This document shows, piece by piece, positions 6,183-50,800 of a stretch of DNA of 58,453 nucleotides. Position numbers and translations under genes: made by a program. How positions within the stretch are numbered: position 1 is the first letter of the stretch; each line of letters starts with the position of its first letter. Source of the stretch: an uncultured virus (IMG/VR IMGVR_UViG_3300002835_000037) (taxonomy: Duplodnaviria; Heunggongvirae; Uroviricota; Caudoviricetes); the IMG/VR virus record IMGVR_UViG_3300002835_000037; one strand, 5' to 3'. The notes under the pieces were generated by a model that did no database searches, was not told where the DNA came from, and was given only the letters and a program-made list of their open reading frames with translations.

Positions 6183-8378
6183 CTATTTAATATTTTTAAA
6201 TGCCGATCTTCTAATACCTTGAGAATTTTTCCCCATATTACGAAACGGACTCTTATTTAATTTAAACAAATTATCTGACTTTTGCAAGTTTTTAACTGTA
6301 TCGTCAGTAATATACCTTTTTAAAAAACCTCTGTTAGATTCTTGTATTTTCATGAATGCTACTAAAGCTGCAAAAGAAACAAGTCTATCCACGTTTAAAC
6401 CGGGAGTGTATTCTTGCATTTCTTTAATCAACATAGGATCAGGAATTCTTTCTATTCCATATTTAGTTTTTACAATAGTACCATCGGGTTTTGTTTCAAT
6501 ATCTAATTCTTCTTTAGTAAACTCAATAGCATAACTTAACATATGAGATTTAAATAATATACCCGTGTTTTTCCAACCATATTCTTGATATACATTATTG
6601 TTAGCACTAAGATCTTTTAAAAATAGAATCTGATTTTTAGGAACTAAATATTTTTGTTTTCTTCTTGATATCATGTACTGAATAAAATGAGAAATATTAT
6701 TTTCTACAAGTGTCCATGCATTGTACCATTCAATAATTAGCTCTAGCATTTGATGAGTTCTATTTATGTCATCAAATCTTCCACACCATGCAGCTACTAT
6801 GGTACCTTGTTCTATATAGGTATCTGTTTCACCGCTAGACTCTTTAGTAATTTGTACAGGAGCTTTCATTATATAAATAGAACATAATGATTCAGAAGTA
6901 GTTGTCTTTCCTTCTCCAACAGGGTCAATAGATGCATAATACATTTGAAACTGTGGATTAGGAACAGGTCTTTCCCAAACTACAAGACAGCCTGTCTTAT
7001 CTTCAGTTTTTTTACTTATCGGGAATTGGCTTATTGGTCTTTTGTTACTTGTTTTTACAACAGGTTTTCCGGTCTCATCTGTAGAAATATCTAGATATTC
7101 ACAAGGATATTCTTTTTCTTCAATTCTTCTTTGTTGTGCAGCAAGGAGATGTGTTGGGAATACAGAAACACTTCTGTTTGCAAAAGCCTCATGTATATTT
7201 CTGGGGTGCTGGGAAATTCTTAATTGATACTCTTCTGGAGCCAACTCATCTTTCCATTGTTTAAATTGGTCATTTAATGCTTCTAATGCTTTTTCTACAA
7301 GTGAGTTACCATAGTTATCAATGTACGGAGGCATTGACCATTGTTCGGGAATAAATAAACCTGACAGACCTGTTGTACCTTTGCCATCTATAAGATCTGT
7401 TTCTACTGCATAAATATCTTTAGCTGTTGGATTCAGAATCATATCCTTTAACGGAAGACACTGTCCTAAATCTCCCACAGAACCTGCAGCTATAAACATA
7501 CCTGTAGTAATCATTCCTGATCTCATGGCCGGCCGCATATATTCATATGTTTGATCCATTTTTGGAGCAATACCTGCTTCCTCATGAAAGAAGTATTTTA
7601 CAGGACCCCCTACACCATTTGTAGGATCTTTTTCAAATGACATTCCTTGTATGGTACCTTTTAAACCTACTTCATTTTTTCTGTCTCCTTTTCTTACCTC
7701 AATCTTTTGTTGCCACATCATAACCTTGTCAGGATTCATTGGCCGGTACCATGCAGTATGCTCATTTAAGAATGCAGCATATTCTTCTAAGAATTTCCAA
7801 GATCCTTTTTCATTAATGTAATCTTTAAGGCTGGCACCAATTTTTAAAGTAACCCCTGGTTCAAACCATTGTTGATTTAAAAGCTTACCCATATGATAGT
7901 ATGAAGAAGCTATCTGACGTTTTTTAAGAATGGCAACATGCTTGTAAGAAAGCTCAGCTAATAGTTCATAAAGAGCCATATGATACTGAGCATCTCGGAT
8001 TTTAGCAAAGTCAAACTTCTGTTGTTCTTTATCAAAGATTGGTAAGAAGTTTAACCACATGTAGTACTCTCTTGCTACAAACCAAGTTAAATCTTTGTCC
8101 TTAACAATTATTCCTTTTCGGCATTTATCTTTCTGATCATCCCAATAAGCTATGAAATCCTTTGATTTTAAAGGATGCGCACAGTATATCCCATCTTTTT
8201 TGAACCGCATTGATTCAGATATGAATACTTCATTGGTAGTGTCATTGAAACAATATTTTCCAGGTTCTTTAAACACATTATTGAGAATAAAGTGCTTGAA
8301 GTCTTCTCTGGATTCAAAACTTGTAGTTGACCAGTTTCCATTTTCATAAGTTGGTATGTCTTTATAAAATTCACTCAT
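6183..8378 (-). CDS. terL: Terminase large subunit
   Basis: LKKRQIASS (Walker A-like), FFHEEAG (Walker B), SIDPV nuclease motif, C-terminal DRLVS. Confidence 0.9.
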   Translation of the reverse strand: MSEFYKDIPTYENGNWSTTSFESREDFKHFILNNVFKEPGKYCFNDTTNEVFISESMRFKKDGIYCAHPLKSKDFIAYWDDQKDKCRKGIIVKDKDLTWFVAREYYMWLNFLPIFDKEQQKFDFAKIRDAQYHMALYELLAELSYKHVAILKKRQIASSYYHMGKLLNQQWFEPGVTLKIGASLKDYINEKGSWKFLEEYAAFLNEHTAWYRPMNPDKVMMWQQKIEVRKGDRKNEVGLKGTIQGMSFEKDPTNGVGGPVKYFFHEEAGIAPKMDQTYEYMRPAMRSGMITTGMFIAAGSVGDLGQCLPLKDMILNPTAKDIYAVETDLIDGKGTTGLSGLFIPEQWSMPPYIDNYGNSLVEKALEALNDQFKQWKDELAPEEYQLRISQHPRNIHEAFANRSVSVFPTHLLAAQQRRIEEKEYPCEYLDISTDETGKPVVKTSNKRPISQFPISKKTEDKTGCLVVWERPVPNPQFQMYYASIDPVGEGKTTTSESLCSIYIMKAPVQITKESSGETDTYIEQGTIVAAWCGRFDDINRTHQMLELIIEWYNAWTLVENNISHFIQYMISRRKQKYLVPKNQILFLKDLSANNNVYQEYGWKNTGILFKSHMLSYAIEFTKEELDIETKPDGTIVKTKYGIERIPDPMLIKEMQEYTPGLNVDRLVSFAALVAFMKIQESNRGFLKRYITDDTVKNLQKSDNLFKLNKSPFRNMGKNSQGIRRSAFKNIK

Positions 8379-12574: not shown

Positions 12575-13690
12575 TTATTTTTTTTCTTTACTGCCTTCTT
12601 GCGTAGCATACTTGATACCCATGATTGTGCCGACTATTGAAAAGGCATTTGTTAATAATACACTAAACATATTACTCCATGTTGATCCAATGATTTGAGT
12701 ATCTTGATTTGTTATAATTGCAGCCCAGTATAGTACAGTTGTTATAACCCCTACTCCAACTATAACAGCCAACGCAACTTTGACAATGATTTTAATCAGC
12801 TCACTTTGGCTTTTTTTCATCATTACATCTAAGTCATTCAGAGCTGCATCTTTTTCTATCTCAATTGCATTCTTAAGCTTTTGTGAGTTATCAAGTTCTA
12901 CCTGTAAATTTGTTGTTAAGTCGTCTATTTTCTTCTTATTGTTTACAGCCTCAGTGACATCAGTTGCAATTTTAACTACATCGGTGATGTTTCCTTTACT
13001 GTCCATTACAGGATTATAAGATGCTTGCAAGTAAACAGTAGATCCATCTACTTTTCTTCTTTCAAATATTCCATCAAAGAACTTACCCTTTTTCAGACTT
13101 TCCCAAAACTTAGCATATTCATCAGATTTAGAATACTCGTAGCTAACAAAAACACTGTGGTGTTTACCAATGACTTTACTTTTTTCATTGGTTTTATAAC
13201 CCATAGTTTCTAAGAATATAGAATTAACTTCTGTTATAAAACCCTCAATATTAAAACTAATAAGAGCTGTACTTCTGTTAATGGCATCTATTTGTTTCTT
13301 ACTATTGACAATTGCACTAATGTCAGTAGCAATCTTCATTACTTTGGTGATCTTACCATCCTCATTTAAAATAGGATTATAAGTTGCTTGAAGATTAATA
13401 AGACTTCCATCCTTTCTTCTTCTCTCAAATTCTCCAGTGTAATACTTACCACTTCTTAGGATATCCCAAAACTTCTCATATTCAAGTGATCTTGAGTAAT
13501 CATCACATACAAAGATGCTATGATGTTTACCAATGATATCATCATGGTTGCCTTTACCATAACCCATTGCTTCCAAAAAAATGTCATTGACCCCTAGTAT
13601 AATACCAGCAAGGTCAAAGTAGATAATAGCATTACTTCTATTAATGGCTTCTAGTCTACTTAGTAACTCTTCTTTTGGGAGATTTTTCAC
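12575..13690 (-). CDS. Tandem PAS-PAC domain membrane protein (no MCP or kinase output domain)
   Basis: Two repeats AINRS.A.I.F...IGKHHS.FV...FW..L..G....G.FERR..DGS...LQA.YNP; coiled coil; two C-terminal hydrophobic helices; GTG start. Confidence 0.85.
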   Translation of the reverse strand: MKNLPKEELLSRLEAINRSNAIIYFDLAGIILGVNDIFLEAMGYGKGNHDDIIGKHHSIFVCDDYSRSLEYEKFWDILRSGKYYTGEFERRRKDGSLINLQATYNPILNEDGKITKVMKIATDISAIVNSKKQIDAINRSTALISFNIEGFITEVNSIFLETMGYKTNEKSKVIGKHHSVFVSYEYSKSDEYAKFWESLKKGKFFDGIFERRKVDGSTVYLQASYNPVMDSKGNITDVVKIATDVTEAVNNKKKIDDLTTNLQVELDNSQKLKNAIEIEKDAALNDLDVMMKKSQSELIKIIVKVALAVIVGVGVITTVLYWAAIITNQDTQIIGSTWSNMFSVLLTNAFSIVGTIMGIKYATQEGSKEKK

Positions 13691-19494: not shown

Positions 19495-20121
19495 TTATTC
19501 ATTATCATAAAACATATTCTCTGTATCTTCAGTACCCCACTTAGTATGACTTTCACAATGATAAAACTTCAGATTGAGTTTATAATCCGGAATAGTTTTA
19601 AAAGGTTCTGATACCATGCTAGGTTCATTCCATAGGATCCTATTATTAGGATATATGCAAAAATGCCCTGAATCTAGTTCTATAACATGACCCATCTTAT
19701 GTTGACTAGGTTCTTCAGCATAAGAAGTAGATATAGTAGCACTACTGTCAGCATTCCAATCAATAGTAAATCTATACCGGCCTTCAACTTTCTCTTTGTT
19801 TTTTAAATAGACCTGGCACCTTTTTCCTTTAAGGAACATGAACTGGGTTACACTAGGACTATAAGAAAAGCAATCCCATAGCTGCAGTATATGAAAATCA
19901 ATGTGCGGGGCTTCAGGTTGCTCAAAAGGTACTAGAGCTGATACAGGTATCTTATCATAAATAGCACCTATATCAGTCATCACCACAAACAAAGCCGCTG
20001 TTCCCTGCAGACTCTTAATAGCAAAAGCCGTCCCCTCAACTAACTCCCCGTGGTGAGCTTCTAGATTATAAAGATACTCCTTCCTAATATAACACTCTAT
20101 AGGGGGGATATTAATATTCAT
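19495..20121 (-). CDS. Hypothetical phage protein
   Basis: Likely start MNINIPP at 20121; TATATTTG element upstream; LQLWDCFS, YPNNRILW. Confidence 0.7.
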   Translation of the reverse strand: MNINIPPIECYIRKEYLYNLEAHHGELVEGTAFAIKSLQGTAALFVVMTDIGAIYDKIPVSALVPFEQPEAPHIDFHILQLWDCFSYSPSVTQFMFLKGKRCQVYLKNKEKVEGRYRFTIDWNADSSATISTSYAEEPSQHKMGHVIELDSGHFCIYPNNRILWNEPSMVSEPFKTIPDYKLNLKFYHCESHTKWGTEDTENMFYDNE

Positions 20122-20189
20122 AAGATCAAGCTTTAATTTATACAAATATAAAAACTTTTTGGAATACTGGTACCACAATATATTAGAAG

Positions 20190-21283: not shown

Positions 21284-21706
21284 CCTACCTGAAACATTTC
21301 CCTTTTTTTTCTAACCCATAACCTGAAATGATGATTACACTCTTTATAGAGTGTATAAAGTAGAAACATAAATATTAATATTTAAAAGTTTCTGTATGGA
21401 AATGTGCCTGACATAGGCTCATTAGAATTTAGATACTTGCTACTTGCATGTATCAGGTATCATATTTACTTTATTTCTTTACTGAGATTACTGAGTCTCC
21501 ACCGTGTGGAGCAAGTAGACTTTGGTATTGATAATCAAGTAGTTAAAAAATGCGGAACACGTGTATAGATAGGTGTGTTTTATCTATATACCAACTCTTA
21601 CCTCATTTATACCTTCTATCTAGTTAGTATTTTACTATTATAATACTTAGTATTATATAGATTTTATATAGCTAAACCTAGACTAGTAACCAATTAAAAC
21701 AAACAT

Positions 21707-21976
21707 ATGAAGATTAATGATTCATTTATCATTGGAGTTATTACAGGTAAGTTATCTTCTTTAGCATTCTTACTATTACTTATACATGTAGTTGGTGTTT
21801 CAGATGGAGAAACAAAGACTCCGGGAAACTACACTGATGTAGGCGGTAATATAGACATAGAATATTACTTGGAAGTATCAGAAGATAGTATATGGGTTGA
21901 GGGAGTTCAATCTAAAAAAGTATATTCTGGTAAATACTCAGACCTTGATAGTCTTATTAATGCTGATAACCTATAA
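21707..21976 (+). CDS. Hypothetical membrane-anchored protein
   Basis: N-terminal hydrophobic segment. Confidence 0.65.
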   Translation: MKINDSFIIGVITGKLSSLAFLLLLIHVVGVSDGETKTPGNYTDVGGNIDIEYYLEVSEDSIWVEGVQSKKVYSGKYSDLDSLINADNL

Positions 21977-21987
21977 ATATTTAACCA

Positions 21988-22155
21988 ATGGCAGATTTTA
22001 CAATCACTGAAGATCAAGCCATGTCTATGGGCATGGAAATTAATGACCTTATACACATGAAGTGTAAAGAAGGTTATAAAGTACTACATAAATACCAACA
22101 TCCTGCAGTAGGATTGGTAGTAGTTATGACTCCAGACTACTCTCTTGCAGGGTAG
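21988..22155 (+). CDS. Small hypothetical protein (55 aa)
   Basis: Hand-translated MADFTITEDQAMSMGMEINDLIHMKCKEG... Confidence 0.5.
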   Translation: MADFTITEDQAMSMGMEINDLIHMKCKEGYKVLHKYQHPAVGLVVVMTPDYSLAG

Positions 22156-22374
22156 TCTCTATTTAAACATTCTAGTTATAACCTTAACTGGTAAAACTTG
22201 CACTGATTTGCAGGTAATCCTATACTAGATAGGTTCTTGATTCCACGGGTTGACCACCGTGTAATAAATTAAAAGCGTCATATGAAAACAATTTAAATGT
22301 CCTGTAATGGCATCTCAAATTGTAGGTTTATGAGAGTAAGAACACTACAACCTACTGATGATACTACAAAGTAT

Positions 22375-22403
22375 TAGTCCTGAGTAAGACTATAAATTAC
22401 TTT
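22375..22403 (+). ncRNA. Repeated H-type pseudoknot motif, copy 1 (degenerate tail)
   Basis: TAGTC-CTGAGTAA-GACTA-TAAAT-TACTT. Confidence 0.45.
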
Positions 22404-22405
22404 CT

Positions 22406-22539
22406 TTACTGTTAGCAAACAGTGACAAACCTGTGGGGCTACTATTGGGTTCTATATCTCTCCTGCAAAGAGAGTATAGTGCTGACATATCATTTGCAGT
22501 GATATGAATCCAAAGTTAGTGCAGACTCAAAAATCAGGT
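22406..22539 (+). ncRNA. Hatchet self-cleaving ribozyme
   Basis: UUACUGUU/AACAGUGA P1, CAA linker, ACCUG/CAGGU P2, UGGGGCU and UUAGUGCAGAC core strands, A-rich linker; branched P4. Confidence 0.85.
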
Positions 22540-22629
22540 ATTTTACATATAGTATTGATAAAGCTATGTGAGTTTAATTTAAACTAGGCAGTGTTATACA
22601 CGGGAGTAATCCGGCAGTGTGAACCTGTT

Positions 22630-22746
22630 GACCGCAGCAGTAATATGTGGTATGCCATTATCTATTCTCCTCCACAAGATTCCACTTGGGAGAATACAGC
22701 TGACTGAAGTGGAATTCGGTTTAATTCAAATGAAGACTCAGCGGTC
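22630..22746 (+). ncRNA. Unidentified structured RNA with an 8+9 bp pseudoknot
   Basis: GACCGC/GCGGTC closing stem; TATTCTCC/GGAGAATA and ATTCCACTT/AAGTGGAAT. Confidence 0.45.
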
Positions 22747-22883
22747 TAAATGCAGTGTAGGATACTGTATTACATTTGTCTATTACTTTATTAATACTGA
22801 CTAGATCAGTATAACCATTAACAACATTAATCAAGTCCTGTGTACCTAACACAGGCAAGTCCTCACCAATAAATTTATATCTT

Positions 22884-23120
22884 ATGAATTCAACAGCACA
22901 CATTAGAACTCCTAAGCATGTTAATGTATACATGCCTTCTGATAACACTCTTAATCAAGAGTTAATAAAAACATCAGAAAAACTCTTTAAGCAACCATTA
23001 AATGAATTACAAATTATGGAAATTACCAAAATGAGTAAGGAAAATAAAGAATGGTTGCTTCAACAGTATAAACAAGAAGTAAGCTTCATTAAGGAGCCAG
23101 ATCTTTCTAGTTTATATTAA
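22884..23120 (+). CDS. Hypothetical protein between the two ribozymes
   Basis: 78 aa with an AT-rich leader. Confidence 0.6.
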   Translation: MNSTAHIRTPKHVNVYMPSDNTLNQELIKTSEKLFKQPLNELQIMEITKMSKENKEWLLQQYKQEVSFIKEPDLSSLY

Positions 23121-23126
23121 TGATCT

Positions 23127-23153
23127 TTCCTGAGCATGAATAAAAACTGCTCA
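23127..23153 (+). ncRNA. Repeated H-type pseudoknot motif, copy 2
   Basis: TTC-CTGAGCAT-GAA-TAAAAAC-TGCTCA. Confidence 0.5.
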
Positions 23154-23259
23154 TTTAATACATCAACTGTAAATAACTGCCTGGAGGTTTTTGACCTTTG
23201 CACCTTACGCGGTTTACATACAAGTAGTAATACTTGAGGGGGTTGTTGATGTTAAGCAA

Positions 23260-24015
23260 AGTAGTAATGCACCATTCCTGTTTCCCAATTCAAATATATT
23301 TAGTATATTTGTATTATGAAGATTTCTATATACACCTTGACAGATCCTAATACTAATAAAATTAGATATGTAGGACAAACAAATGATCCTAAAAGAAGAT
23401 TGAGTAGACATATAAACAACTCAAGAGCTTTTAAGGATAAAAGACATATCAGTAATTGGATAAGAAGTTTAACTTCTGCTCCAATAATGGATATAATTGA
23501 AGTTTGTGAGTATTCAATTAGAAATAGTAGAGAAAACTATTGGATTGATTACTATAAGAATCAAGGTTATGATTTATGCAACTCTTCTAATGGTGGTGCA
23601 GGTGCTGGTATTGGTAATAAGAATTGTTTAGGAAGAATTATGTCTGATAAAACAAAACAGAAAATAGCTAATGCAAACAAGAATAATACCAATGGATTAG
23701 GCAATAAAGGAGGAAAACCTTCAAAAACAATTTATCAATATGATAAAAATAAAATACCTATTGCTGTTTATAAATCAATACAAGATGCTGTTAAAGCTAC
23801 TGGATATAACAGAACAACAATAAGAAGAAATATTCAAAATATTAGTTCAAGTAAATTATTTATTTGGACTGATAAACCTTTGCTCTAACTCATCCAAGGG
23901 TGAGCAGTTGTAATAATATTGTAGTCCAGATTAGTTACAGTTAAGCACATTAGCTGTAATGAGTGGCAGCAACCGGAGCTGGAAACTATTATTACAACTG
24001 AGTGCAGAGGGTACT
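23260..24015 (+). ncRNA. Twister ribozyme interrupted by a GIY-YIG gene
   Basis: 5' AGUA-G-UAA-UGCA-CC (23260-23273); 3' CUCA-UCCAAGGG-UGAG (23889-23904), 14-bp P5, UGCA-GAGGG-UACU (24003-24015). Confidence 0.65.
23316..23888 (+). CDS. GIY-YIG homing endonuclease with NUMOD-type DNA-binding repeats
   Basis: SIYTL...RYVGQT...RRLSRH, E..WI; C-terminal IYQYD...YKSI..A. Confidence 0.85.
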   Translation: MKISIYTLTDPNTNKIRYVGQTNDPKRRLSRHINNSRAFKDKRHISNWIRSLTSAPIMDIIEVCEYSIRNSRENYWIDYYKNQGYDLCNSSNGGAGAGIGNKNCLGRIMSDKTKQKIANANKNNTNGLGNKGGKPSKTIYQYDKNKIPIAVYKSIQDAVKATGYNRTTIRRNIQNISSSKLFIWTDKPLL

Positions 24016-24058
24016 CAACTTATAGAAACTTAATTAATAATTTAAAAATAAACTCAAA

Positions 24059-24871
24059 ATGAAAATTCATTTACATTCTAAACCAGGGTTATATGAAGTA
24101 GTAACCTATGGTAGAAACAGTATTACTTGTTCTACCAAGCATAGCACATTTCAAGTACCAAGCAGTGATTTTAAATCATTTGCCGGTGGTAGTTGGAACT
24201 TTAGTGTTACCAAAGATCAGATGGATATATTTCTATCTGTTGTTCAACCTGATAAATATAAGATCCAAGTAGAACAAGAAGATCAAATCTTGACATTAGC
24301 TGCTAGATTAGATATCATTCAAGCTGCTGTTAAAGCACAACAAACTGTTGTTGTTGAAGAAGAACCAGAAGCTTATGAAGATGATTATCCTGATGGTAAT
24401 CCACAAGAACCTACCAAAGAAGAATATGAAAAGTGGTGGAGACAAGAATCTGATAAGAATTATGAATTGAACAATAAGATGAGAAATATTGCACGTCAAG
24501 TGTATTCTCAGAATCTTGACTTTACTCATTTTCAGAATCACAAGGGTATTAAATTTATTATACAACAAGATCATTATGATGATAAAATCAACAGATTTTG
24601 TTGGGATCCTTATGGCTTTGTTAGTAATGGTCACAGTGATATCAGTAGTATTTATAGTGAAGGTGATTGGGGTACAATTAATGGTGGTTGGATTAAAATC
24701 ATAGATGATAATGTGATTTTATATGCTAAATCAGGTGATTATGGTGTATATGATGATGCTATTGCCATAGAGTGTGCAAAGAAAATATTTCCTACAAAGA
24801 AAATACATTCATTTGCCGGCAGACAATGGAATGATGAATTAACTTCAAAATTCTCATTGTATTCTTTTTGA
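24059..24871 (+). CDS. Hypothetical protein with a C-terminal Janus/Ocnus (PHPT1)-like domain
   Basis: GIKFII...HSDI...GGWIKI...ILYAKSGDYG...AI...K.IFP. Confidence 0.6.
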   Translation: MKIHLHSKPGLYEVVTYGRNSITCSTKHSTFQVPSSDFKSFAGGSWNFSVTKDQMDIFLSVVQPDKYKIQVEQEDQILTLAARLDIIQAAVKAQQTVVVEEEPEAYEDDYPDGNPQEPTKEEYEKWWRQESDKNYELNNKMRNIARQVYSQNLDFTHFQNHKGIKFIIQQDHYDDKINRFCWDPYGFVSNGHSDISSIYSEGDWGTINGGWIKIIDDNVILYAKSGDYGVYDDAIAIECAKKIFPTKKIHSFAGRQWNDELTSKFSLYSF

Positions 24872-47814: not shown

Positions 47815-50800
47815 ATGAGTCAAGTACAATTAAACGTTGAAGAGTTAAAGGATTTTATTAAGCATATGGTTAAGAATAACCAACACATTCAGTCTGAAGG
47901 AAAAGTTCCTGTGGCAGTGAACATTGAAGGTGATGCTGGGCTTAATTCAAAATAAATGAGTATATTTGTAACATGAAGAAATTAATTTCAGAGTGTTTAC
48001 ACAAAGACTTAAATCAAAAGTGTGGTATTTACAAACTTACTTGTAATGAGCACAGTTATATTGGTAGCAGTATTAATATTTATTATAGGTTGAAAAGACA
48101 TATATCAGATTTGCTAAAAAATAAGCATGCAAATAAGTATATGCAAAATGCTTTTAATAAATATGGAAAGGATAGTTTTATATTTGAAGTAATAGAAGAA
48201 TGTAATAGAGATGTGTTAATTAAAACAGAATCCTATTATATAGAATCTATGTCTCCGGACTTAAACTTTATTCAAAATCCTGTTGCAATGATCCACAGTA
48301 ATGAAACATTACTTAGGATTTCTGCAACATTAAAAGAAGCTTATGCTTCTAAAAGAATAAAAAATCCTATTTCTAAAACTGTTCATCAATATAATATAAA
48401 TGGTTTTTATCTTAAATCTTATGAATCCTGTGCTGAAGCAGAAAAACAATTGAACTTACCAAAAGGAAAAGTTTCAAGAGTAGCTTCAGGAAAAGGATTT
48501 TCTTGTAAAAACTATAGATGGAGTTATGAATTAAAAAATAAACTTGGAGAATCTGTTATTAAACCAGATACAACAAAAAAAGTTTATGTATATGATGAGA
48601 ACAACAACTTAGTTCAAGAATGGCAAAGAGTGGGTAATGTAGCTAGTAATCTAGGTATTAGCTCATCTGCAATGTCTACAAGAATTAAAAAAGGTAATTA
48701 CTATGATGGTTTAAGATATTCATTTAACCCAGGTCCAGGGTAAAAATTGGGTGAATTGCTGGGAGTTCCTAAAGCTTTGTTAGCTACAACATAACCGGAA
48801 ATGGTAAGTGTGAATGCTTGAAAATAACAAAGATGTCCTAATGGATAATCAGCAGCCAAGTCTAGATCTAAATGGTCTGGAAAGGTTCAACGACTAGGTA
48901 TTGAAACTATGTAAATAGAATATAATATACCCAAGAGTGCCCAACACCAAGTAATTGGTGAAGATATAGTCTGAACTATAGTGAAAGCTATAGAAACAAG
49001 GATAAAGAGCCTTGTGATAACAAAATGTGGAAAAACAAGTGCAATTATGCAGTTGGGTAAAGAATTGCAAATGGATGTTGTAAAGTTGAATTTATCTCAA
49101 CTTGAAGAATTAGGTGACTTAGTTGGGTTTCCTGTAAAAGAATTTCAGATACAAAATGCAGAAGGTAAAACTACCTGGATTAATGAATCTCAGATATCTG
49201 CAGCTAGTGCGAAAGGTTATAAGGTTGTTGGAAAAAGAATGTCACATGCTGCTCCTGAATGGATTCAGGGTAAAGGTGAAGGTGGTTTCTTAATCTTAGA
49301 TGACTATACTCGTGCGGATTAACAAAATATGCAGTCTAGTAGTGTTAGTGTGAATAATTTAATTATCTTTGTGATATGGAAAAATTAAACACACAAACTC
49401 TTAAGACCGCATTAAAGAGTATAGGAATCTATAAAATTAAAATTAATGATAAAGAGTACATTGGTAGCTCTTGTAATATTGGTCAAAGATTAAAACATCA
49501 TTTATGGTCTCTTGAAAATTTAAAACACCATAATAGAACAATGCAGAATTTATACAACAAGTATAGTAAAGAAGAAATTTACTTTGAAGTTGTAGAAGAG
49601 TGTTCAGATGAAGTTTTAATTGAGAGAGAAGCTTATTATATTAGCACACTTAATCCATATATAAATCATATACTAGATCCACAAACTCTAGTCAGGGATG
49701 ATGTATGTAAACAAAGGATAAGTGATACTAAGAAAAAAGCTTATGCAAATGGTCTAAAACCTCACAATCTTAAAGCAGTACATAAATATTCACTTGATAA
49801 AGGTGAGTATTTAGAAAGTTTTGATTCTCTTACAGCTGCTGCTAAATCTATTAATGCTAAAAGTATTAATAGTATAAAAGCAGTATGTAATAGTAAGCAA
49901 ACTTCTGCAGGAGGTTATGTTTGGTCTTATAATAAAGTTAATCTAGTTTTTTCTAGAGATAAAAAATATAAGTTAGAACCAGTGTTACAATTTACTATTG
50001 ATAATATTTTTATCAAAAAATGGGAGTCTATAACTGAAGCAAGTAAAGAACTTGGTATCTCTAATATTAATAGAGCAATATCTAGAAATTTAACTGCTGG
50101 GGGTTATAGATGGTCTAAAAAGCATAAAGTGTTTGGTCCGCAATAAATCATGTGAATTCAGGGAAACTCCAGAGATGGACAATCCTGAGCCAAGCCTTAT
50201 AGGGATATAAGGAAGGTGCAACGACTAGTGTATGGAGTCTAGAACAGACAGTAAAACACCAAGAGCGCATGACACATAGAAATATGTGATGATATAGTCT
50301 GAACTGTACATATAATCTAAATGAAAGTACAGAATCTAAGGATAAAGAGCCTTAGAGTTAACAAAATGCAACGCTTTATGCAAGCAACAATGGAGATCCT
50401 AGACAGACAAGAATATGTTTCTTGGAAGTTACCAAAGAACTGGCATGTACTTTTGACTACTAATCCAGACAATGGTGATTACAATGTAACTTCTCTGGAT
50501 GTAGCTCAGAAGACTAGATTTATCTCTGTAGAGTTAAAGTATGATTCTGATGTATGGGCTAAGTGGGCAGAGAAAGCAAGTATTGATGGTAGATGTATTA
50601 ACTTTATGTTGATGCATCCAGAATTGGTAACTCAAAGAGTTAATCCAAGATCTATCACTACATTCTTTAATGCAATTAGTTCTATTCCAAAGTTTGAAGA
50701 TAACTTACCTTTAATTCAAATGATTGGTGAGGGATCTGTTGGACCTGATTTTAGTTCTATGTTTACTATGTTCATTAATAACAAACTTGATAGAATTATT

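Follow-up and report, generated by a model that had tools for sequence, protein, structure and literature searches.

A hatchet ribozyme heads a conserved, possibly circularised noncoding RNA in the early arm of a freshwater crAss-like phage

The 58,453-nucleotide (nt) record IMGVR_UViG_3300002835_000037 of an uncultured Caudoviricetes virus in IMG/VR (the window, by which we mean this whole stretch of DNA) encodes a crassvirus-type major capsid protein at 428-2047 on the - strand (Pfam PF23898, 3e-31) and is a freshwater crAss-like phage. Its structural genes occupy the - strand as far as about 20180, and its replication genes occupy the + strand beyond that point. On the coding (+) strand of this early or replication arm lies a hatchet self-cleaving ribozyme, followed by a conserved RNA domain, a gene for 78 amino acids, a second folded RNA that we call module T, and a homing endonuclease gene. 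The original prediction had read module T as a twister ribozyme that acts together with the hatchet to free a single long RNA. Comparison with relatives favours a different reading, to which we assign a probability of roughly 55%: a single hatchet heads a conserved folded noncoding RNA that is processed by this ribozyme and probably circularised, and the locus is not a bracket formed by two ribozymes.

Relatives were assembled as 110 loci (L numbers below) from IMG/VR and metagenomes, fetched via neighbouring proteins, a word from module T, and a word from the invariant core of the conserved domain. The core pattern fetched 26 viral and 36 metagenome loci carrying DNA copies of the unit of hatchet and core; there are 63 core-bearing stretches, 51 of them distinct, of which 33 distinct units were aligned and 31 units entered a listing of downstream borders. 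The sequencing runs that contain window DNA are lake and other freshwater metagenomes, with at least 90% of the sampled words present in 15 DNA runs. The GenBank phage collection gave no match to 21900-23400, and this region is missing from the nearest virus record. The hatchet and the domain behind it comprise the following features.

22375-22392, + strand: candidate P0 hairpin UAGUC-CUGAGUAA-GACUA, a few bases 5′ of the predicted cut, as read from the sequence
22402-22539, + strand: hatchet self-cleaving ribozyme (Rfam RF02678, 77.7 bits, gathering score 51, E 2.4e-14)
22463-22469 and 22493-22499, + strand: two exactly complementary loops, CUGCAAA and UUUGCAG, in the variable arm of the hatchet
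22540-22586, + strand: R1 hairpins directly after the hatchet, nearly invariant in the 33 units
22587-22655, + strand: variable arm, for which unrelated hairpin sets substitute in relatives
22656-22722, + strand: core of 67 nt, invariant or nearly so in 33/33 units
22664-22670 with 22689-22695, + strand: AUUCUCC with GGAGAAU, first pairing of a candidate H-type pseudoknot in the core
22680-22687 with 22707-22714, + strand: UUCCACUU with AAGUGGAA, second pairing of the same candidate
22734-22747, + strand: hairpin with conserved loop UCAGCG, two pairs of which covary
22750-22770, + strand: hairpin with conserved loop UAGGA, showing covariation, candidate kissing partner of the last hairpin
22794-22812, + strand: variable hairpin AUACUGA-CUAGA-UCAGUAU, absent from some relatives and AUAUUGA...UCAAUAU in others
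22833-22865, + strand: last hairpin CCUGUG-UACCUAA-CACAGG (22837-22855) between two AAGUCCU words, at the end of the unit

The match to RF02678 runs end to end, over model positions 1-133 of 133 and all four stems. The unpaired model letters 'aUCu' align to 22402-22405, which places 'UC' at 22403-22404, ahead of P1. According to the accessible text of Li et al. 2015 (PMC4604424), hatchets have a C at position -1, are cut at the 5′ foot of P1, and leave a 2′,3′-cyclic phosphate and a 5′-OH. The predicted scissile bond should therefore be C22404/U22405 with the 5′-OH on U22405, so that the hatchet proposed originally is real and its cleaved end, put at about 22406, lies one base too far downstream. 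Membership of the family gives high odds that the RNA cleaves itself. The 'UC' ahead of the cut is invariant in 33/33 distinct units, homology among relatives begins at 22402-22403 in most loci, and a hatchet occupies the equivalent place in 7/16 and 6/14 of the related loci scanned. Each of five records of relatives, two of them at least 97% complete, carries exactly one hatchet. The two complementary loop words of the variable hatchet arm are invariant or nearly so in the 33 units. A P0 hairpin 5′ of the cut is described for about 90% of hatchets in the accessible text of Li et al. (PMC4604424), and at the place of the candidate P0 the relatives have other hairpins. Separately, a 24-nt direct repeat (UCCUGAG..., 75% identity) occurs at 22378-22401 before the hatchet and at 23128-23151 before module T, 750 nt apart, and may be due to chance.

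The hatchet does not stand alone. Judged from the 33 aligned units, conservation starts at the 'UC' ahead of the cut and stops at ...CAAGUCCUCA (about 22865); beyond ...CCUCA the sequences of relatives are unrelated, and upstream of the unit there are at least four unrelated modules. The conserved unit is, on this comparative evidence, a hatchet plus a domain of about 330 nt with a predicted fold, extending from 22405 to about 22865. Its length is 415-489 nt and its median G+C content (GC) 0.357 in relatives, and 460 nt and 0.378 in the window. The order of blocks is constant (hatchet, R1, core, R3, last hairpin). In each core locus that extends far enough upstream, a single hatchet precedes the core by about 285-146 nt, and among the 51 distinct loci we found no hatchet after the core and no 3′ part of the unit before a hatchet. 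Nor was a second hatchet or a tandem unit present in the DNA of these 51 loci or of the five records.

Several hairpins of the domain behind the hatchet show covariation. RNAalifold, which misfolds part of the hatchet and was used for the hairpins only, predicts 84 pairs, 15 of which show double-sided changes that keep pairing, and the fold of the 464-nt unit has z = -2.8, with 0/100 shuffles equally stable. In R1 the changes within the two predicted helices are mostly one-sided, and the variable arm, alignment columns 218-293, takes several alternative sequences that differ in length. The core can form an H-type pseudoknot, its invariance leaving no covariation by which to judge the pairings. 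In the hairpin with loop UCAGCG the column pairs 378-389 and 380-387 show double-sided changes in 3/33 units, and in the hairpin with loop UAGGA six of seven pairs do so, in 5-9 of the 33 units. The last hairpin region is at least 90% conserved across the 33 units and shows compensatory changes in three stem pairs. The loop of the UAGGA hairpin, at 22759-22763, and that of the last hairpin, through CCUA at 22845-22848, probably kiss: in L072 the UAGGA loop has become UGGGAA and the CCUA of the last-hairpin loop UUCCCA, a single event of several bases by which complementarity is kept, and the last hairpin therefore appears to belong to the same fold. No Rfam family was found on 22530-22900 at E<=10.

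Three other assignments within the unit were considered and rejected. A second hatchet-like site after 22783 is weak, as the P2 strand is missing and the likeness is not kept in relatives; the likeness of 22781-22810 to 22395-22423 scores 26 against 16.7 +/- 3.3, and 19/1000 shuffles reach 26. A long-range helix between GGGGCU at 22435-22440 and AGUCCU near the 3′ end clashes with the hatchet stems and shows one-sided changes only; it is conceivable, as an idea only, that these strands form an alternative fold after cleavage. Open frames of 61 and 75 amino acids over 22619-22948 are not accepted as genes; both strands are conserved at once and relatives have stops, and the region of the 61-amino-acid frame is therefore RNA and not protein.

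Downstream of the unit the arrangement is as follows.

22884-23120, + strand: gene for 78 amino acids, no assigned function, with conserved homologues and no Pfam or PHROG family
23130-23155, + strand: stem-loop GAGCA...UGCUC after this gene, as read from the sequence
23159-23262, + strand: module T, a folded RNA with covariation over 13 distinct copies
23160-23167 with 23245-23252, + strand: closing helix of module T
23175-23179 with 23210-23214 and 23184-23188 with 23202-23206, + strand: two stacked inner helices of module T
23221-23226 with 23231-23236, + strand: side hairpin of module T, between the 3′ strands of P2 and P1
23263-23290, + strand: conserved box AAUGCACCAUUCCUG.UUCCCAA..., matched at 92-96% over 24-28 nt in many relatives
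23316-23888, + strand: GIY-YIG/NUMOD1 homing endonuclease gene (Pfam PF01541, 2.8e-10, and PF07453; PHROG homing endonuclease)

The fold of module T is well supported. Its alignment has 28 pairs with 99.4% of cells paired and four pairs with double-sided changes, and 0/500 shuffles were as good; sliding the partners by 1-3 columns reduced pairing to 34-42%. The three connected stems P1, P2 and P4 are 100% paired and each has at least one double-sided pair. Long single strands are invariant (UGUAAAU, UACAUA, GRGGGGG and AAGCAAAGU), as are the 3′ tail GCAAAG and the inner loop CUUUGC to which it is complementary. Module T resembles twister type P1 (RF03160) in its stacked P1-P2-P4, in a UA step between P1 and P2 in the 5′ strand, and in a loop able to pair with the 3′ strand beside P1. 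However, it differs in that the conserved C of pseudoknot PK1 is mostly missing, in an extra hairpin located in the wrong strand, and in a conserved 3′ tail that can pair with the loop. In twisters the 'NC' that directly follows the P2 5′ strand pairs with the P4 loop to form PK1, and auxiliary stems (P3, P5) are located only in L2 (PMC11662667). The corresponding positions of module T (columns 24-25) read AG in 10/13 copies, CG in 2/13 and CC in 1/13, so that the conserved C is missing in 10/13. A candidate PK2 (RRCC/GGUU) has 96.2% of cells paired with one-sided changes only, and its loop could pair with the 3′ tail instead. The twister-like words of the window copy, ACUGCC...GAGGGGG beside a closing helix of 7-8 base pairs, are ACCGAG or ACUGCG in place of the first box in other copies. 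Covariance models agree: an assignment to RF03160, RF02684 or RF03154 was rejected, as none matched and the conserved boxes are not kept. At gathering score neither twister nor twister-sister was called anywhere in the whole window, nor any other ribozyme at module T; no Rfam ribozyme family besides hatchet appeared in 21500-24500 at E<=10, nor any Rfam family in 23120-23320 (201 bases) at E<=10. Twister-P1 found nothing at E<=1 in the five records of relatives, two of which carry module T. In addition, type-P1 twisters cut near their own 5′ end (U5-A6 in env22, U6-A7 in rice; review PMC6154101, in the part accessible), and the equivalent cut in module T would fall at about U23170/A23171, the positions 23262-23265 being only its 3′ border. 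By its sequence and predicted fold, then, module T is an unclassified movable folded RNA module and not a recognisable twister, and the cut that had been placed at 23265 finds no counterpart here.

The mobility of module T is apparent from its placement. It directly adjoins the hatchet on its 5′ side in 11/51 distinct loci, lies downstream in seven, and is absent from the available flanks in 33. In the abutting copies its tail ends about 2-3 nt before the cut (...AAGCAAAGU-UC^A), that is, within 4 nt of it. The downstream copies, several hundred bases away, are those of the window, its near-identical twin L049, and L050, L086, L095, L098 and L106. A model that we built of module T finds at most one copy per locus and 14 copies in 50 sources. 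Since its placement varies, the span of about 860 nt between the hatchet and the end of module T is not a conserved unit. The slots of module T, one preceding the hatchet and one separating the stem-loop from the conserved box, are also used by at least three further, unrelated modules, folded and about 110 nt long (L004 2335-2447, L009 4672-4780, L023 about 7146-7260), none of which is in Rfam at gathering score. This suggests that the crAss-like relatives shuffle a set of small RNA modules.

The remaining neighbours are also variable. The 78-amino-acid gene is real and conserved, as had been proposed, with intact homologues of 46% identity in L009, L010, L022, L023 and L027 and weaker ones in L003, L033 and L041. 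In other relatives the unit is followed by a gene for 44 or 51 amino acids or by none, and 5/31 units have no frame of at least 20 amino acids behind them (the labels given are L028, L070, L071, L091, L101 and L108). As the downstream genes vary, the RNA is more than a leader belonging to a single gene. The stem-loop GAGCA...UGCUC recurs behind other genes in relatives; the terminator scan of the window did not call it, and the numbers of sigma-70 promoters and terminators found by scanning were not above those in shuffles. The conserved box continues in relatives as a hairpin CCUGA-UUCCCAAGG-UCAGG (e.g., L009 4781-4830), and the loop UCCCAA of this hairpin is complementary to UUGGGA of the invariant core (22686-22691). 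Its 3′ half was lost in the window through insertion of the endonuclease gene, a lineage-specific insertion that is absent at this place from L009, L023 and others.

Evidence for the RNA itself comes from metatranscriptomes, which had been proposed as a check. Six such runs share 8-9% of the sampled words, and contigs of four of them, from four lake or freshwater studies, were aligned to the window. They cover 22417-22783 at a word depth of 7-215, and one tiny RNA library of 6.9 million letters has a 275-nt contig at depth 51. The conserved unit is accordingly present in RNA contigs of four studies; these derive from relatives, so that their cover is limited to conserved parts and is uninformative on transcript ends. 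Contig ends were considered and rejected as RNA ends: the starts at 22417 follow a C/T site at 22416 and the ends at 22689 are 30-letter overlaps, and they are therefore breaks in the assembly graph. No RNA contig lies on the 78-amino-acid gene, module T or the endonuclease gene, which is uninformative for contigs of relatives that share 8-9% of words. One X16 RNA contig, 316 nt long at depth 70, shows the order 22690-22783, 22406-22457, 22507-22544 (back-join '378'), a permuted order seen in 0/51 DNA loci. If the hatchet arm is short in this relative, about 83 letters lie between 22783 and 22406; the stretch between 22784 and the unit end measures 82-85 nt, nearly the same, and the junction may therefore sit at this conserved end. 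In another X16 contig 22158 is joined to 23113 and then to a pre-hatchet module of the L004 type, and it therefore represents a relative without the upstream stretch of the window and with the stem-loop before its hatchet.

In the proposed mechanism a transcript from the + strand of the early or replication arm of the freshwater crAss-like phage would cut itself at C22404/U22405, as expected from family membership, removing an upstream part that is variable among relatives and leaving a 5′-OH. The RNA would then consist of the ribozyme, the invariant core, the covarying hairpins and a last hairpin kissing an earlier loop, ending at about 22865 after some 460 nt. A host RtcB-type ligase might then seal the unit as a circle of about 380-460 nt. 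The unit has 'UC' at each of its borders, and a sealed ...CCUC-UUUACUG joint would recreate a hatchet cut site; we regard this as an observation and not as a mechanism. The odds are good that the unit is an RNA in its own right. That it is closed by an RtcB-type host ligase into a circle of this size, and is the DNA source of the hatchet circles reported from fresh water, has in our judgement about an even chance.

Several observations weigh against this account. Circularity depends on one assembled contig from one run, whose joint is reported as 'between: not known'; 132 of the 316 letters are unaccounted for, which leaves the junction free to fall at any point between 22783 and about 22865. 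The same order would arise from a tandem duplication in a relative outside the sample, and RNA libraries can contain DNA. A second cutting activity was not found, there being no Rfam family on 22530-22900 at the threshold given above and no second hatchet. Ligases are likewise missing: searches for RtcB and the PF09414 RNA ligase gave nothing in the 59 scanned open reading frames of the window, confirming the lack of RtcB noted previously, or in the five records of relatives, T4-type Rnl1 and kinase families not having been searched. Most of the 31 units have an ATG some 15-35 nt or less behind ...CCUCA, reached via an A-rich stretch, and this also fits a cis-acting leader. Finally, the link to the known circles is drawn from size, GC and habitat only.

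Among the alternatives, the original prediction held that hatchet and twister free an RNA of about 860 nt (22406-23265) that includes the 78-amino-acid gene and is ligated or stabilised via its ends. The hatchet is indeed real, and module T is folded, stacks its helices in the order P1-P2-P4, has a loop with the potential to pair with its 3′ strand, and lies downstream of the hatchet unit in the window and six other distinct loci. Self-cleaving ribozymes reportedly cluster, and new classes are said to have been found by such neighbourhood in the work of Weinberg et al. from 2015. However, neither the 201 bases around module T nor its relatives yield a twister match, the ACUGCC box is not kept, the extra hairpin is in the 3′ strand and not in L2, a type-P1 cut would come at about 23170 and not 23265, and no 860-nt unit is conserved among loci in which module T is more often upstream or missing, each record having a single hatchet. 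We consider this explanation highly improbable; the part of it that survives is a self-processed and perhaps circular phage RNA, in the form of the shorter unit of about 460 nt, which is found in RNA libraries of four studies, with one back-join contig and with freshwater hatchet circles on record in the accessible literature. A related proposal, compatible with our preferred reading, is that module T represents a new self-cleaving class of twister-like shape. A copy abutting a hatchet would then be released as a product of about 105 nt, ligatable at both ends, and the copy in the window would cut after the 78-amino-acid gene. Its compact fold of three helices plus a hairpin, its covariation, invariant single strands and two possible pseudoknots, its position within 4 nt of the hatchet cut in 11 distinct loci, and the reported precedent for finding classes by neighbourhood all favour this idea. 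Against it, module T matches no family, many conserved folded phage RNAs are not ribozymes, and the module is confined to one phage lineage; we think it improbable.

More weight must be given to the possibility that the hatchet trims the 5′ end of a messenger RNA and that the ~330-nt domain is a cis-acting 5′ untranslated region, with no circle involved. The 5′-OH and the structure might stabilise the message, or the domain might control translation of the next small gene. The ATG behind most units and the location of the unit on the coding strand of the early arm speak for this model, and ribozymes that aid translation of a downstream frame have been described in RNA viruses (PMC13725137, in its accessible part). 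Yet the next gene differs among relatives and is missing behind some units, the RNA core is invariant as opposed to the 46% identity of the 78-amino-acid protein, and one RNA contig is permuted. On balance we regard a linear leader as unlikely, if by no means negligible. The permuted contig is itself open to challenge, as it could come from an unsampled relative with tandem units or be an artefact of assembly or reverse transcription. It is a single contig of a single run, and other contigs of that run show rearrangements at the DNA level, such as the joining of 22158 to 23113. On the other hand, a second hatchet or a permuted order occurs in none of the 51 distinct loci and none of the five whole records, the depth of the contig is 70, a graph of 31-letter words cannot join places through the 7-8 letters they share, and circular hatchet RNAs were found independently in the accessible part of a preprint by Lee et al. 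An origin of the back-join other than a circle therefore seems doubtful to us, somewhat more so than a leader.

The circles of that preprint (Lee et al. 2022, 10.1101/2022.07.19.500677) are the closest known system to the hatchet-headed unit. Its accessible text describes 34 hatchet-bearing clusters of circular RNAs with a single ribozyme; they measure 357-567 nt, come mostly from freshwater metatranscriptomes, and have a median GC of 35% and the strongest Rfam scores of that set. The unit resembles them in having one hatchet in one polarity, in length (415-489 versus 357-567 nt), in GC (0.357 versus 35%), in its freshwater source, and in very strong Rfam hatchet scores and branched folds. It differs in that those circles are presented as candidate viroid-like replicators, whereas the unit described here is encoded in DNA, at a fixed genome place in at least 51 distinct loci; a viroid-like replicator in the sense used there is found as RNA only, and the unit has DNA copies. 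The same text makes no link between hatchet circles and phage DNA, and a later opinion paper raises the possibility that one-ribozyme circles might be DNA-encoded (PMC11721086). We found no literature linking hatchets to crAss-like phages. With respect to the hatchets of Li et al. 2015, the accessible description agrees in the four stems, the C at -1, the cut at the 5′ foot of P1, the upstream hairpin (P0), and an occurrence in metagenomic, phage-like DNA only, and it gives no biological role or partner domain. Unlike known hatchets, the present ones are always fused to the conserved folded domain of about 330 nt and have a variable arm with two complementary loops. We put forward only tentatively, and as unlikely on present evidence, the broader proposition that the freshwater hatchet circles are noncoding RNAs encoded by the DNA of lake crAss-like phages and not autonomous replicators, that one hatchet sets both ends and may open and reseal the ring, and that module T is another self-cleaving class.

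Other features of the genome lie outside the locus. A frame of the PHROG "ferredoxin" family (5e-68) at 19495-20178 on the - strand sits at the turn between the two gene arms, and a protein of 371 amino acids with two PAS domains (12575-13690, - strand), unusual for a phage, is located within the structural arm. Two group I introns (48701-48993 and 50086-50315; 84.6 and 77.9 bits) lie within 1.6 kilobases, each adjoining a GIY-YIG/NUMOD1 frame (47973-48743 and 49376-50146), and presumably split one gene.

These results link the hatchet ribozyme, which has lacked a known biological role or partner since 2015, with a conserved RNA domain that keeps one genomic position in a defined phage group, and they show that this unit is present in lake RNA libraries. 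They also illustrate that the call of a second ribozyme, made by eye on the strength of some twister-like words, fails. Should the hatchet circles of fresh water originate from this unit, a whole group of candidate viroid-like agents would have to be reclassified as circular RNAs encoded by phages, and phages of Bacteroidota would offer a route through cultivable hosts to study the function of such RNAs.

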